Part shown: one piece after another, positions 618 through 8,156 of the stretch
Layout of the letters: the number at the start of each line of letters is the position of its first letter
Position numbering within the stretch: position 1 is the stretch's first letter
DNA from: a virus
Taxonomy: Duplodnaviria; Heunggongvirae; Uroviricota; Caudoviricetes
Direction: 5' to 3' (one strand)
DNA length: 8,156 nt
Virus record (IMG/VR): IMGVR_UViG_2778261152_000004
The notes under the pieces: generated by a model
The model's database searches: none
The model's input: the letters and a program-made list of their open reading frames with translations, nothing else
What the model was told of the DNA's origin: nothing
Position numbers and translations under genes: made by a program

Positions 618-1043
618 TCAATGTACTGCCACAGCATTTCCTGCCGGGCCACCACGGTTCATCTGATTGAAACCGGCGATTGCCACTGCGACAAAATCAT
701 CAGCGTCTCTCACCAGTCGCTCCCGCGTCTCCACCAGCTCCCGAAAATAAGCTGAACTGTGGCTGCGCATTCTGGCCACCAGCAAAGGTGGCATTGCCTT
801 TTCGATCGCTGGTAACAACGCCTGAATTTTTTCAACTGCATCAGGGGTGTCTTTCTCTATCCAGCGGAAAATTTTCTGGGTATTGCGAGCCAGGGCTTCC
901 GGATGGCTGTCGTCGTACAGTTCAGGAAACGTCATACCCAACTCAAAATAAGCCTGGGTTATTCCAGCTGCCGGAACTTTTTCGCCATCAGGACGCGCCC
1001 AGGCATTCATCGCCATGCGGATGTGTTCATGCTTGATTTTCAT
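618..1043 (-). CDS. YdaT-like prophage protein (cII-position gene), 141 aa
   Basis: Track ORF 618..1115 trimmed to the internal start MKIKHEHI... (ATG at 1041-1043) preceded by a strong RBS AAGGGGGGA. The N-terminus matches my recollection of the Rac YdaT family. Overlaps the upstream cro-like gene by 17 nt. Confidence 0.65.
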   Translation of the reverse strand: MKIKHEHIRMAMNAWARPDGEKVPAAGITQAYFELGMTFPELYDDSHPEALARNTQKIFRWIEKDTPDAVEKIQALLPAIEKAMPPLLVARMRSHSSAYFRELVETRERLVRDADDFVAVAIAGFNQMNRGGPAGNAVAVH

Positions 1044-1269: not shown

Positions 1270-1298
1270 GAGTCGCTCCATAAAACTGAACGCCAAAA

Positions 1299-1360
1299 GT
1301 TTAATAATCAAAACCAAAGAAAGTCAAGAAACAAAACCATCTGTGTTTTAAAATCAAAAC
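1299..1360. promoter_or_regulatory. Divergent operator/promoter region (OR-like) between the cro-like and repressor genes
   Basis: Two 16-bp palindromes of form GTTTT-N6-AAAAC: gtttaataatcaaaac (1299-1314) and gttttaaaatcaaaac (1345-1360), 14/16 identical, centres 46 bp apart. CAAAAC recurs at 1309, 1332 and 1355 (23-bp spacing). Minus-strand -35 TTGACT at 1322-1327 for the cro-like gene. Plus-strand -10 TAAAAT at 1349-1354 ending 6 nt before the repressor ATG. Confidence 0.45.
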
Positions 1361-1999
1361 ATGAACAAGCAAACAATATCTGAACGCATAACCCAACGTA
1401 TGCATGCGCTAAACCTGAAAGGCAAAGACCTTGTCAATGCCACTGGCGCATCAAAAGGCTCCGTAAGTCAATGGATGAACGGTGGAGGAGCGCCGTCCTC
1501 GCGTTACATAAGTTCACTGGCAAAAATATTGAAAGTAAACGAAAATTGGCTTCTTAATGGAGGAGAGTTAAATACAGGTGATTCGCTTGATCTATCTTTA
1601 CCGCCGATAAAAACGGTTCCGCTACTATCACTTCAGCAGGCAGCAAGCTGGAGTGATTATATGAAAAATTCCTCAATAACCTCTTGTGTGCAGCTTGTCG
1701 GAGAAATCCCGGCCAATACCTTTGCAGTTGTTCTAGAGAGTGACAGTATGTCAACATCTGGTGGGGGAGTTTCCATCCCAAATGGTTCAACAGTTTTTGT
1801 TGATCCCGATCGAACCGTACAACCAGGAAATATTGTCCTTGCCTTACCCAAAGGGACCACAACACCTGTCATTCGTAAACTGGAGATAGAAGGGCCGGAT
1901 ATTCTTTTAGTCCCCACGAATCCTCGCTACCCTTCAATTATGCTGGATGATCTATCTTGCATATTGGGCGTATGCTTTAAAATTCAACAAAATATTTAA
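1361..1999 (+). CDS. cI-type prophage repressor: N-terminal XRE-family HTH plus C-terminal S24 (LexA-like) peptidase domain, 212 aa
   Basis: HTH segment LKGKDLVNATGASKGSVSQWMNG. C-terminal region aligns by eye with lambda cI (ESDSM...VFVDPD...PGNIV...IRKL...LVPTNPRYP vs GDSM...LVDPE...PGDF...FKKL...LQPLNPQYP). Ser129 and Lys173 of the catalytic dyad are present. No SD upstream. Confidence 0.8.
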   Translation: MNKQTISERITQRMHALNLKGKDLVNATGASKGSVSQWMNGGGAPSSRYISSLAKILKVNENWLLNGGELNTGDSLDLSLPPIKTVPLLSLQQAASWSDYMKNSSITSCVQLVGEIPANTFAVVLESDSMSTSGGGVSIPNGSTVFVDPDRTVQPGNIVLALPKGTTTPVIRKLEIEGPDILLVPTNPRYPSIMLDDLSCILGVCFKIQQNI

Positions 2000-2064
2000 C
2001 CGACCTCATCTATTTGATTAACTGTATGCCATCGTGGTGATGGCTTAACAGCTGCCTGCTTAAA

Positions 2065-2112
2065 ATGTTTTGATAAAAAAACATTGACCTGAAAAGTTCA
2101 TTTTTCTAAACT
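2065..2112 (+). promoter_or_regulatory. Putative leftward (dicB-operon) promoter with overlapping operator
   Basis: -35 TTGACC (2084-2089), 17-bp spacer, -10 TAAACT (2107-2112), A-tract upstream. Palindrome ATGTTTT-gataaa-AAAACAT (2065-2084) has the same GTTTT-N6-AAAAC architecture as the OR-like sites and abuts the -35. Confidence 0.4.
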
Positions 2113-3165: not shown

Positions 3166-3223
3166 TTTCTGGTGACGTTTGGCGGTATCAGTTTTACTCC
3201 GTGACTGCTCTGCCGCCCTTTTT
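3166..3223 (+). ncRNA. dicF: DicF small RNA (ftsZ-targeting cell-division inhibitor)
   Basis: Sequence tttctggtgacgtttggcggtatcagttttactccgtgactgctctgccgccc followed by a T5 run matches my recollection of the ~53-nt DicF. Located between ydfC and dicB as in the dicBF operon. Exact 5' end uncertain by a few nt. Confidence 0.65.
3181..3223 (+). terminator. Rho-independent terminator forming the DicF 3' end
   Basis: GGCGG (3181-3185) pairs with CCGCC (3213-3217), followed by c then TTTTT (3219-3223). Confidence 0.5.
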
Positions 3224-3392
3224 AAAGTGAATTTTGTGATGTGGTGAATGCGGCTGAGCGCACGCGGAACAGTTAAAACCAAAAACAGTGTTATGGGTGG
3301 ATTCTCTGTATCCGGCGTTAATTGTTAACTGGTTAACGTCACCTGGAGGCACCAGGCACTGCATCACAAAATTCATTGTTGAGGACGCGATA

Positions 3393-3862: not shown

Positions 3863-6334
3863 ATGAGTAAAGTCTTTATTTGCGCCGCTATTCCTGACGA
3901 ACTGGCAACAAGGGAAGAAGGCGCTGTGGCTGTAGCCACAGCCATTGAAGCTGGCGACGAACGCCGTGCTCGAGCAAAATTTCACTGGCAGTTCCTGGAA
4001 CATTATCCGGCTGCTCAGGACTGCGCTTATAAATTTATTGTCTGCGAGGATAAACCTGGCATACCCCGCCCTGCCCTCGATTCATGGGATGCTGAATATA
4101 TGCAGGAAAACCGCTGGGATGAGGAGTCTGCTTCTTTTGTCCCGGTTGAGACTGAATCCGATCCGATGAACGTCACTTTTGACAAGCTGGCCCCTGAAGT
4201 ACAGAACGCTGTCATGGTTAAGTTCGACACATGTGAAAACATCACCGTTGATATGGTTATTAGCGCACAGGAATTGTTGCAGGAAGACATGGCAACATTC
4301 GACGGACATATCGTTGAAGCGTTGATGAAAATGCCAGAAGTTAACGCCATGTATCCGGAGCTTAAGTTGCACGCCATTGGGTGGGTTAAGCATAAATGTA
4401 TTCCTGGTGCTAAATGGCCCGAAATTCAGGCAGAGATGCGCATCTGGAAAAAACGTCGCGAAGGTGAACGCAAGGAAACCGGAAAATACACGTCTGTTGT
4501 TGATCTCGCCCGCGCCAGAACCAATCAACAGTACACTGAAAATTCAACAGGAAAAATCAGCCCGGTCATTGCTGCCATTCATCGCGAATACAAGCAGACA
4601 TGGAAAACACTGGATGACGAACTGGCCTACGCTCTCTGGCCTGGTGATGTGGATGCCGGAAACATTGACGGCAGCATCCATCGCTGGGCAAAAAAAGAAG
4701 TTATCGACAACGACCGCGAAGACTGGAAGCGTATCTCGGCATCAATGCGCAAACAGCCTGATGCCCTTCGCTACGACCGCCAGACTATTTTTGGCCTTGT
4801 CCGTGAGCGTCCGATCGACATTCACAAAGATCCCATAGCACTGAACAAATATATCTGCGAATACCTGACGACAAAGGGCGTGTTTGAGAATGAAGAAACA
4901 GACCTGGGCACTGTTGATGTTCTCCAGTCATCAGAAACACAAACTGATGCAGTGGAAACTGAGGTATCTGATATCCCAAAAAATGAAACCGCGCCGGAAG
5001 CTGAACCATCTGTAGAGCGTGAGGGGCCGTTCTATTTCCTCTTCGCAGATAAGGACGGAGAAAAATACGGTCGCGCAAACAAACTTTCTGGTCTGGATAA
5101 GGCACTGGCTGCTGGCGCCACTGAAATCACAAAAGAAGAATATTTTGCCCGAAAAAATGGCACATACACGGGCTTACCGCAAAATGTAGATACCGCTGAA
5201 GATTCAGAACAACCAGAGCCGATAAAAGTTACCGCTGACGAAGTAAACAAAATTATGCAGGCAGCCAATATCAGCCAGCCTGACGCCGATAAGTTGCTTG
5301 CTGCGTCACGTGGTGAATTTGTTGAAGGGATTAGTGACCCGAATGATCCGAAATGGGTTAAGGGGATCCAGACCCGCGATTCTGTGAACCAGAACCAGCA
5401 TGAATCGGAACGGAACTACCAAAAAGCGGAACAAAACAGCACAAATGCGTTACAAAACGAGCCAGAAACGAAACAGCCTGAACCAGTGGCGCAACTGGAA
5501 GTGGAAAAAGTCTGCACCGCCTGCGGTCAGACCGGCGGCGGCAACTGCCCTGATTGTGGCGCGGTGATGGGCGACGCAACATACCAGGAAACATTCGATG
5601 AAGAGTATCAGGTTGAAGTTCAGGAAGATGATCTGGAGGAAATGGAAGGCGCTGAACATCCACACAAGGAGAACACTGGCGGCAATCAGCATCACAATAG
5701 CGATAATGAAACTGGCGAGACGGCAGATCACTCAATTAAGGTGAACGGTCATCACGAAATCACATCCACCAGCAGGACGTGTGACCATCTAATGATCGAC
5801 CTTGAAACCATGGGAAAAAATCCTGATGCCCCGATCATCTCAATAGGTGCAATATTTTTCGATCCGCAAACCGGAGATATGGGACCGGAATTTAGTAAGA
5901 CTATCGATCTGGAAACTGCTGGCGGAGTCATTGATCGGGACACCATTAAATGGTGGCTTAAGCAATCACGCGAAGCGCAATCTGCCATTATGACCGATGA
6001 AATCCCGTTAGATGATGCACTGTTACAATTGCGGGAATTTATCGACGAAAACTCCGGTGAATTTTTTGTTCAGGTTTGGGGAAATGGAGCCAACTTCGAC
6101 AACACGATTTTGCGTCGTTCATACGAACGGCAGGGGATCCCCTGCCCGTGGCGTTACTACAACGATCGCGATGTACGCACAATCGTTGAGCTGGGGAAAG
6201 CCATAGACTTCGATGCCAGAACGGCTATTCCATTCGAAGGTGAGCGCCATAATGCACTTGATGACGCCCGTTACCAGGCAAAATACGTTTCAGTTATCTG
6301 GCAAAAACTGATCCCGAGTCAGGCTGATTCTTAA
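3863..6334 (+). CDS. Large prophage exonuclease: unknown N-terminal region, RecE-like central linker with CxxC-x7-CxxC zinc ribbon, C-terminal DEDDh 3'-5' exonuclease domain, 823 aa
   Basis: Single long ORF with a GAGG RBS. C-terminal motifs: Exo I MIDLETMG, Exo II VWGNGANFDNTIL, Exo III HNALDDARYQAKY. Central segment DKLLAASRGEFVEGISDPNDPKWVKGIQTRD...CTACGQTGGGNCPDCGAVMGDATYQETFDEE resembles what I recall of the RecE (exonuclease VIII) linker. Occupies the exo position upstream of xis-int. Confidence 0.8.
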   Translation: MSKVFICAAIPDELATREEGAVAVATAIEAGDERRARAKFHWQFLEHYPAAQDCAYKFIVCEDKPGIPRPALDSWDAEYMQENRWDEESASFVPVETESDPMNVTFDKLAPEVQNAVMVKFDTCENITVDMVISAQELLQEDMATFDGHIVEALMKMPEVNAMYPELKLHAIGWVKHKCIPGAKWPEIQAEMRIWKKRREGERKETGKYTSVVDLARARTNQQYTENSTGKISPVIAAIHREYKQTWKTLDDELAYALWPGDVDAGNIDGSIHRWAKKEVIDNDREDWKRISASMRKQPDALRYDRQTIFGLVRERPIDIHKDPIALNKYICEYLTTKGVFENEETDLGTVDVLQSSETQTDAVETEVSDIPKNETAPEAEPSVEREGPFYFLFADKDGEKYGRANKLSGLDKALAAGATEITKEEYFARKNGTYTGLPQNVDTAEDSEQPEPIKVTADEVNKIMQAANISQPDADKLLAASRGEFVEGISDPNDPKWVKGIQTRDSVNQNQHESERNYQKAEQNSTNALQNEPETKQPEPVAQLEVEKVCTACGQTGGGNCPDCGAVMGDATYQETFDEEYQVEVQEDDLEEMEGAEHPHKENTGGNQHHNSDNETGETADHSIKVNGHHEITSTSRTCDHLMIDLETMGKNPDAPIISIGAIFFDPQTGDMGPEFSKTIDLETAGGVIDRDTIKWWLKQSREAQSAIMTDEIPLDDALLQLREFIDENSGEFFVQVWGNGANFDNTILRRSYERQGIPCPWRYYNDRDVRTIVELGKAIDFDARTAIPFEGERHNALDDARYQAKYVSVIWQKLIPSQADS

Positions 6335-7973: not shown

Positions 7974-8079
7974 TTTAATATTTATCAAATAGTTGACACG
8001 TATGACTCTTGAAATCCATAAATTCAAGCGCAGTGCCCAGCCATCCCGATACTGCTGCTTTCACCAAATCCTTAGTGCT

Positions 8080-8156
8080 GGTAATGACTCCAACTTATTG
8101 ATAGTGTTTTATGTTCAGATAATGCCCGATGACTTTGTCATGCAGCTCCACCGATT
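8080..8156 (-). mobile_element. IS1 insertion sequence, terminal inverted repeat and adjoining end (element continues past the window)
   Basis: ggtaatgactccaacttattgatagtgttttatgttcagataatgcccgatgactttgtcatgcagctccaccgatt matches the IS1 terminal inverted repeat (GGTAATGACTCCAACTTATTGAT) and adjacent sequence as I recall it. Confidence 0.85.
8095..8156 (-). CDS. insB: IS1 transposase InsB, C-terminal fragment (5' part outside window)
   Basis: Minus-strand translation ends ...SVELHDKVIGHYLNIKHYQ with stop TAA (complement of 8095-8097), the InsB C-terminus. Confidence 0.8.
   Translation of the reverse strand, partial: SVELHDKVIGHYLNIKHYQ

Follow-up and report, generated by a model that had tools for sequence, protein, structure and literature searches.

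The 8,156-nt stretch of DNA described here (IMG/VR record IMGVR_UViG_2778261152_000004; hereafter, the window) is the early and immunity region of an E. coli prophage, a lambdoid one that belongs to the Qin/Rac/CP-933P group. Its immunity module contains a gene for a CI/C2-like repressor and a gene for a P22-type Cro protein, which diverge from a 91-bp intergenic region in the arrangement of lambdoid (P22-type) switches. The repressor is 28% identical to P22 C2 over its full length (BLASTP E=5e-26) and 25% identical to lambda CI over the helix-turn-helix (HTH) and S24 domains, and the Cro-like protein is 47% identical to P22 Cro (BLASTP E=9e-15). Three 16-bp sites lie in the intergenic region, which we refer to as the right operator region (OR), and two more lie beyond the repressor gene, in the left operator region (OL). 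They are named by analogy with lambdoid operators, as are the predicted promoters of the Cro-like gene (PR), the repressor gene (PRM), and the operon beyond the repressor gene (PL). As argued below from comparison of sequences, the five sites are very probably the operators of the resident repressor/Cro pair in a P22-type immunity switch.

Table 1. Sites, promoters and genes in the window.
Feature	Position	Strand	Remarks
OR1-like operator (predicted)	1299..1314		GTTTAATAATCAAAAC; left arm GTTTA
OR2-like site (predicted)	1322..1337		AGTCAAGAAACAAAAC; consensus right half AACAAAAC; repeats OR1 at 23-bp offset
OR3-like operator (predicted)	1345..1360		GTTTTAAAATCAAAAC; 18-bp symmetry TGTTTT..AAAACA
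OL2-like operator (predicted)	2067..2082		GTTTTGATAAAAAAAC; 20-bp symmetry ATGTTTT..AAAACAT; ends 1 nt upstream of PL -35
OL1-like operator (predicted)	2096..2111		GTTCATTTTTCTAAAC; between PL -35 and -10; right half within -10 TAAACT
Promoter-free halves, OR	1307-1314, 1330-1337, 1353-1360		ATCAAAAC
Promoter-free half, OL	2067-2074		GTTTTGAT
PR of Cro-like gene (predicted)	1298..1327	-	TTGACT (1327-1322), 18-nt spacer, TAAACT (1303-1298); consensus scan
PRM core (predicted)	1349..1361	+	-10-like TAAAAT (1349-1354), start at or just before A1361; poor -35
PL, dicBp equivalent (predicted)	2084..2112	+	TTGACC-17-TAAACT; consensus scan
CI/C2-like repressor, 212 aa	1361..1999	+	HTH_3 and Peptidase_S24 (Pfam); N-terminal HTH with recognition helix ASKGSVSQW; C-terminal S24 with Ser129 and Lys173
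P22-type Cro, 80 aa	1027..1269 (1269-1027)	-	P22_Cro family (Pfam); recognition helix TSKTTVSMW
YdaT (CII-like)	618..1043	-	PDB 3c4r E=1e-88; PDB 8bt1 E=2.9e-79
O-like replication gene		-	5' part only
ydfA (DUF1391), ydfB, ydfC		+	Beyond repressor gene
DicF small RNA	3167-3218	+	Rfam RF00039, 76.7 bits
dicB and ydfD (DUF1482)		+	
823-aa open reading frame	3863-6334	+	Matching gene in phage record ON470612 labelled exodeoxyribonuclease VIII
Excisionase (DUF1233) and integrase		+	

The original prediction had described three GTTTT-N6-AAAAC palindromes in the window. All three lie where they were placed, and those at 1345-1360 and 2067-2082 are perfect; the one at 1299-1314 reads GTTTA-N6-AAAAC, with one mismatch. 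When one mismatch is allowed, the window contains four GTTTT-N6-AAAAC matches, as compared to a mean of 0.57 in 200 dinucleotide shuffles, none of which (0/200) reached four. The relaxed core GTTT-N8-AAAC is perfect at only three places in the 8156 bp, which are the same three sites. In a first-order Markov simulation of the whole window, such cores averaged 0.235 per run and never reached three in 1000 runs. In a simulation of the AT-rich intergenic DNA alone (66% A+T), the probability of at least one core was 0.019 and of at least two was 0.00016, and three sites appeared in none of 50,000 runs. A 10-mer, ATCAAAACAT, had also been reported to recur between the two regions, and it was found on the plus strand at 1353-1362 and inverted (minus strand) at 2065-2074. 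This 10-mer alone is not significant, with at least three one-mismatch matches in 29/200 shuffles, and it gains meaning as the consensus half-site plus flank.

The three OR sites have centers at 1306.5, 1329.5, and 1352.5, i.e., 23 + 23 bp apart, and they coincide in part with the -10 and the -35 of PR and with the -10 of PRM. They correspond to the three tandem, imperfectly symmetric sites of a lambdoid (P22-type) OR, with a middle site that has one clear half only. The start-to-start spacing of 46 bp in the divergent region, as had been proposed, is correct, and so is the weaker CAAAAC-containing element in between: 1326-1339 and 1303-1316, offset by 23 bp, are 86% identical. The description of a tripartite OR also holds, as the middle element (1322-1337) is 23 bp from each neighbor and has a right half that varies in step with the half-site of the lineage. 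Read on the opposite strand, the left half of OR1 plus A1298 gives the PR -10 TAAACT, and the right half of OR1 is the consensus half-site ATCAAAAC (= GTTTTGAT). The left half of OR2 is taken up by the PR -35 (TTGACT, minus strand), and OR3 adjoins the repressor ATG and contains the -10-like TAAAAT. A fourth OR site at 1271-1286 (AGTCGCTCCATAAAAC; GTTCGCTCCATAAAAC in locus L004), 28 bp from OR1, was considered and rejected as unproven because it is absent in distant lineages and because the cro Shine-Dalgarno region located there explains its conservation.

At OL, the site at 2067-2082 does lie next to the -35 of the putative leftward promoter, ending one base before TTGACC-17-TAAACT (2084-2112). 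It is not, as was first thought, the only site, since the repeat finder also pairs 2092-2111 with 1295-1314, which gives a second OL site at 2096-2111. Together, the two sites flank or overlap PL, the second promoter of a lambdoid (P22-type) switch. Relatives have better matches at the OL1 position, e.g., GTTTTGATATATAAAC in L002 and GTTTGTTTTTCTAAAC in L004. A third OL site was sought between the repressor stop codon and 2067, where no GTT-N10-AAC was found. As an operator consensus, the strict GTTTT/AAAAC form has to be given up even though the sites themselves stand: the shared core is GTTy-N8-rAAC, and the best half-site is GTTTTGAT.

The same layout is found in ten repressor lineages, down to about 40% identity. 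These comprise E. coli (two types), Symbiopectobacterium (L002), Arsenophonus-named (L091), Yersinia (L149), Xenorhabdus-named (L148), Morganella (L151), and Salmonella (L147) sequences as well as L095 and L150. The diverse relatives came only from a profile search and contig look-ups; a scan of genome contigs with the repressor alignment gave one relative, Symbiopectobacterium, and the first IMG/VR scans returned mostly near-identical E. coli copies. In L003-L006, whose repressors are 83-84% identical, all sites are kept while spacers and flanks diverge, and the layout is also kept in the distant lineages, whose repressors are 38-47% identical to that of the window where measured. The OR of these lineages consists of a palindrome with the PR -10 as its left half, in which AGTTTA is invariant, a middle half-site that runs directly into the PR -35 (GTCAAG or ATCAAC), and a repressor-proximal 16-mer that adjoins the predicted ATG in 9/10 lineages and is 3 nt off in Morganella. 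Relative to the ATG, the OR centers lie at -8.5, -31.5, and -53.5/-54.5 in the six lineages scored, and four more have the same site order. In OL, a TTGAC -35 follows one site after 1-8 nt, and the other site ends in the -10 TAAACT.

The family core, GTTy-N8-rAAC, is accompanied by a promoter-free half that is lineage specific. This half is GTTTTGAT or GTTTTGTT in E. coli, Yersinia, Symbiopectobacterium, and L091 and GTTCGTAA in Salmonella and Morganella; in the right-hand orientation, it reads ATCAAAAC in E. coli and Yersinia as compared to TTACGAAC in Salmonella and Morganella. The right half of OR2 covaries with it, being CAAAAC in E. coli and Yersinia and ACGAAC in Salmonella and Morganella. 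The recognition helices of the repressor and of Cro both start with Ser-Lys in six aligned lineages, and the same start is found in 4/5 further contexts; Salmonella Cro has Ala-Lys. In outgroups whose repressors have different recognition helices, these positions hold different palindromes. One of them, a Proteus relative, combines P22-like helices with P22-type TTTAAGA..TCTTAAA sites, which serves as a positive control for the approach. The pattern and positions of the sites, their conservation, their covariation with the repressor, and their specificity to the module, described next, are direct observations.

Variation within E. coli and comparison with sibling prophages tie the sites to the module. 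Among 56 E. coli-type haplotypes, 0/48 columns vary in the three OR sites as compared to 16/43 other intergenic columns (Fisher p=1e-6, a value that overstates independence, as the haplotypes are related by descent), and 45% of third codon positions vary in the same set. Changes in OL among the haplotypes fall in the -35/-10 spacer and in central site bases, and the outer GTTy/AAAC is fixed (GTTC/AAAC in OL1). Four E. coli loci (L007, L008, L009/L010) have the ydaT and/or PL-leader/ydfA flanks in common with the window and carry other repressor/Cro pairs, and K-12 Qin (L146) has the same downstream ydfABC-dicB operon with another repressor. In their OR and OL, these heteroimmune loci carry GTAAC..GTTAC, TACC..GGTA, GTAC-type, or TGTTAG..CTAACA palindromes, and the motif of the window is absent there. 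Hence, the operator sequence switches with the repressor module. The heteroimmune modules keep similar -35 elements despite their quite different palindromes, and the mosaic boundary with them lies just downstream of the PL -10. The motif search in related prophages that had been suggested as a check showed that GTTT-N8-AAAC is not general in AT-rich prophage DNA: it occurs six times in 392 kb of CP-933P-type prophage DNA (0.15/10 kb) as compared to 260 times in 307 kb of cognate loci (8.5/10 kb), making the 16-bp motif ∼55-fold rarer in the sibling DNA. For an 18-bp variant, the picture is reversed, with 97 occurrences in CP-933P-type DNA and 0 in cognate loci.

Several points weigh against an operator role for the five sites, in addition to the shared descent of the haplotypes. 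OR2 carries only one recognizable half-site, and OL1 of the window deviates (GTTC) and has a polymorphic center. OR1-left and OL1-right are the -10 TAAACT, OR2-left is the PR -35, and the center of OR3 is the PRM -10; because half-sites coincide with promoter hexamers, part of the conservation is therefore promoter constraint. The sites of other lineages were found in part with the motif itself, so that the invariance of GTT/AAC is partly circular. If PRM starts at the ATG, the center of OR2 is at -31.5, unlike the activating position in lambda, which is about -42, and therefore positive (lambda-style) autoregulation cannot be assumed. Finally, a literature search with six exact site strings found, in the library searched, no paper containing the site sequences of the window.

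The overlap with promoter hexamers could mean that the repeats are mere promoter architecture (the -10 TAAACT, the -35, and an A-tract UP element upstream of PL) combined with AT-rich composition. Beyond the hexamers and the base composition given above, this explanation can draw on the right half of 2067-2082 (AAAAAAACA), which is located where the position rule for a proximal UP element would place one. We consider it very improbable, since the halves off the hexamers are the best conserved and change jointly by lineage (ATCAAAAC vs TTACGAAC), the distance from OL2 to the -35 ranges from 1 to 8 nt among lineages, unlike that of an UP element, and heteroimmune modules with a similar -35 have quite different palindromes. 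The simulation of the AT-rich segment, with its probability of 0.00016 for two or more sites, argues in the same direction. Even less likely is binding of a host nucleoid protein, e.g., integration host factor (IHF), in place of the phage regulators. The IHF consensus is WATCAANNNNTTR, and AATCAA or TATCAA is found within OR1, OR3, and OL2; however, the TTR part is fully matched in none of the three, the Salmonella-/Morganella-type sites (TTACGAAC) occupy the same positions although they have no ATCAA, and the motif follows the repressor type, not the host. The IHF and the UP-element readings were both rejected.

A different question is whether the proteins recognize a direct repeat (ATCAAAAC, recurring every 23 bp at OR) in head-to-tail fashion, or only one of the two regulators binds, in place of symmetric dimers of both on a palindrome. 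The consensus half is on the same side in all three OR sites, OR2 lacks a left half, and the authors of the CP-933P study noted direct as well as inverted repeats in the footprinted region (PMC8630535). Nevertheless, GTT is kept at the symmetric position of the weaker halves in 40/40 full sites, a count that is partly circular, and the arms are perfect over 6 bp in OR3 and 7 bp in OL2. The homologous repressors of P22, 434, and lambda bind as symmetric dimers. Both PR and PL present a consensus half followed by a promoter-element half, which fits asymmetric palindromes as known from lambda. The direct-repeat alternative is thus improbable, and palindromic operators for a symmetric dimer remain the favored description.

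Our current model of the switch, in which we infer the protein-to-site assignment, the affinity order, cooperativity, and the transcription starts, is as follows. Dimers of the 212-aa repressor and the Cro-like protein would recognize the GTTy-N8-rAAC sites through HTH motifs that start with Ser-Lys. As 1299-1314 covers the PR -10 and 1322-1337 covers the PR -35, their occupancy would turn off cro, ydaT, and replication. The site at 1345-1360 covers the PRM -10 and start, through which repressor in excess would limit its own synthesis (negative autoregulation) and Cro would turn the repressor gene off. Transcription of that gene probably begins at the ATG or no more than a few bases from it. 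At the other end, 2067-2082 and 2096-2111 bracket the PL -35 and cover the -10, so that bound repressor would silence ydfABC-dicF-dicB-exoVIII-xis-int. PL is predicted to drive ydfA-ydfB-ydfC-dicF-dicB-ydfD-exoVIII-xis-int. Such a switch is of ordinary P22/lambda-type design and is conceptually not new; its binding sequence is previously undescribed.

The start of the repressor gene matters for this model. The ATG at 1361 is not preceded by a Shine-Dalgarno sequence, translation cannot start further upstream because of an in-frame TAA at 1349-1351, and the N-terminal peptide MxKxTIxERI is kept in distant relatives. For these reasons, we suggest that the repressor mRNA is leaderless or nearly so, a proposal that also leans by analogy on the PRM start of P22 and the paaR2 start of CP-933P. 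Existing annotations differ. In E. coli KSC9 and O157:H7 493/89, RefSeq/PGAP calls only 1661-1999, a 112-aa 'LexA family protein' from Met101, which leaves the HTH domain of the repressor unannotated; one phage record starts the repressor at Met14, and the gene calls of Salmonella and Yersinia relatives reach further upstream, across the operators. The start favored here is a leaderless one at 1361, given the conservation of the N-terminus and the missing Shine-Dalgarno sequence. A good Shine-Dalgarno sequence (GGAG, 7 nt, ATG) does precede Met101 (1640-1663), just past the putative linker, and the GGAG is also found in L002 and L091 and not in L095. It could be a by-product of Trp-Ser/Arg codons or mark an internal start for a product with the C-terminal domain only. 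An operator directly adjoins the repressor start codon in K-12 dicA (L146 900-965), P22 c2 (L154 2165-2230), and the P22-like module of Proteus (L152) as well, the 3-nt gap of Morganella being the exception to strict adjacency within the family of the window. In this group of immunity regions, repressor mRNAs may generally be leaderless or nearly so.

The repressor has one of the two sequence features expected for LexA/CI-type self-cleavage. Ser129 and Lys173 form the Ser-Lys dyad, aligning with the catalytic Ser149 and Lys192 of lambda CI. An Ala-Gly (or Cys-Gly) scissile bond is missing, as the lambda Ala111-Gly112 and the Ala-Gly of P22 C2 align with Ala94-Ala95 (1640-1648). The same position is Ala-Glu, Ala-Val, or Ala-Ala in relatives and Ala-Gly in Yersinia P0032, P0036, and the outgroups. 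With Ala-Ala in place of Ala-Gly, cleavage of the repressor, and therefore RecA-dependent inducibility, is uncertain.

Among characterized systems, P22 is the closest homologue by the identities of its C2 and Cro, and its features were taken from the annotated genome (GenBank BK000583). The cro Shine-Dalgarno regions are similar in DNA (GAGTCGCTCC in the window and AGACTCGCTCC in P22), and in both, a three-site OR (66 bp in P22 and 62 bp in the window) directly adjoins the repressor ATG, with a PR -35 of TTGACT inside or at the edge of OR2 and the PRM -10 inside OR3. The PRM start of P22 is annotated 4 nt before the c2 ATG. PL has TTGACC in both, where one operator covers the -10 and another lies immediately 5' of the -35. 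However, the sites of P22 are of an 18-bp ATTTAAGA..TCTTAAAT type, whereas those of the window are of a 16-bp GTTTTGAT/ATCAAAAC type, and P22 has three annotated OL sites where two are recognizable in the window. The recognition helices are SNVAISQW (C2) and SDAAVSQW (Cro) in P22 as compared to SKGSVSQW and SKTTVSMW in the window. Homoimmunity with P22 is not indicated, given these helices and the P22 sites ATTAAAGAACACTTAAAT, ACTAAAGGAATCTTTAGT, and ATTTAAGATGACTTAACT in place of GTTT..AAAC 16-mers. The window also has a YdaT-type CII analogue instead of C1 and has no N (gene 24) downstream of PL.

CP-933P/Sp12 of O157:H7 shares a near-identical YdaT, the same PL leader, a ydfC-like gene, and the recE region with the window. 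There, PRM and PR diverge in a 97-bp intergenic region, PL has related operators (Jurenas et al., mBio 2021, PMC8630535), and PaaR2 and YdaS bind equally spaced 18-bp palindromes with the half-site GTTTAGTAA, as shown by electrophoretic mobility shift assays and DNase I footprinting; the paaR2 mRNA is leaderless, its start being mapped to the ATG by rapid amplification of 5' cDNA ends (PMC8630535). The half-sites begin with the same GTTTA, and the -10 is TAAACT. In contrast to the window, the repressor PaaR2 is unrelated, has about 123 aa and no S24 domain, and is co-transcribed with the ParE2/PaaA2 toxin-antitoxin pair, and the helix of the Cro analogue is SPSYLSQM as compared to TSKTTVSMW. 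The palindromes are of 18 bp (GTTTAGTG..TAAAC) and not 16 bp, with each spacing exclusive to its own module, and the PRM-proximal site ends 11 nt before the ATG, whereas that of the window adjoins it.

K-12 Qin has the same downstream operon, ydfABC-dicF-dicB-ydfD, a divergent repressor/Cro-like pair, and an operator that adjoins the dicA ATG. DicA and DicC control the dicBF operon via operators at dicCp (dicCp/dicAp) and dicBp (PMC10448788). Unlike the repressor of the window, DicA has 135 aa, lacks an S24 domain, and is counteracted by an antirepressor (PMC10448788), and its operators are of the TGTTAG..CTAACA type. With lambda, the window shares the switch logic, the 25% repressor identity over HTH and S24, and the aligned Ser/Lys dyad. 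Lambda also has a site spacing of about 23-24 bp, asymmetric palindromes, and a leaderless cI mRNA. Its operators, in contrast, are of 17 bp and of unrelated sequence, its Cro belongs to an unrelated fold family, and its OR3 lies about 12 bp further upstream of the PRM start.

Other features surround the switch. The ydaT gene belongs to the conserved flank, outside the immunity-specific module, and TTGATTTTCATGAATCCC at 1033-1050 spans its start codon. The published YdaT binding site is TTGATT-N6-AATCAA (PMC9986795, a paper on CP-933P YdaT), and a perfect copy is present at the same place in CP-933P-type loci (L099 6903-6920); the window copy, which lies where the exchanged cro module joins, has a degraded right half. 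The O-like replication gene contains three tandem 12-mers (TCTTKATCTGTM) followed by (C)GTGAC repeat clusters (77-158 and 380-418), which are probably origin iterons. Between the repressor stop codon and OL2, a hairpin, GCCATC-GTGGT-GATGGC (2028-2044), has an invariant stem and a polymorphic loop among E. coli copies (ATATT in L003/L004). Other lineages have a canonical GC-stem and T-run terminator at this position, whereas the T-run is missing from the hairpin of the window, which may terminate the PRM transcript weakly. The PL leader (2113-2291) is conserved across heteroimmune E. coli modules, and its core (AAGTAGCCAGCCCGAGGCG..GAACATGACGGC) is also present in Symbiopectobacterium and partly in Yersinia- and Xenorhabdus-type loci. 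The leader contains no N gene. As a structured RNA it was rejected, with no Rfam match in the stretch and a fold no better than shuffles (z=+1.09), and it could be a nut/put-like or processing signal. Just upstream of dicB, 3230-3370 gives a sub-threshold STnc100-like match (34.1 bits; gathering score 47). The window closes with an IS1 end (GGTAATGACTCCAACTTATTGATAG...; about 8079-8156), ∼100 bp past the integrase stop codon; the attachment site is probably truncated or displaced by it. Nearly all E. coli genomes contain several copies of this match, annotated as IS1A/IS1B.

More speculatively, and in our view unlikely, the GTT-N10-AAC core of many Ser-Lys-helix prophage repressors in the Enterobacterales might form a graded specificity series (GTTTTGAT, GTTTAxxx, GTTCGTAA), perhaps including the 18-bp GTTTA..TAAAC of PaaR2/YdaS. 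In that case, co-resident prophages, e.g., in O157:H7, would partly cross-regulate one another's PR and PL promoters and dicBF operons, and half-site spacing (16 vs 18 bp) and the inner bases would count for immunity as much as the outer core does. As a further part of this reading, the repressor of this clade, lacking Ala-Gly, may be induced other than by RecA-stimulated self-cleavage.

The 1.3-kb immunity core is present at ≥80% coverage in 1042/5426 complete E. coli genomes, O157:H7 strains included, and in three phage records (204576, vB_EcoS-640R1, and vB_EcoS-813R8). The module is thus found in about one-fifth of sequenced E. coli genomes and in induced temperate phages, and it sits upstream of the dicF/dicB cell-division inhibitors, a recE-type exonuclease, xis, and int. 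Reading the sites as operators and 1361 as the likely start corrects the RefSeq annotation, which covers the C-terminal 112 aa only and misses the DNA-binding domain. Known operators, together with the likely leaderless start, would allow prediction of which prophages are mutually immune and provide a basis for designing reporter and induction experiments.

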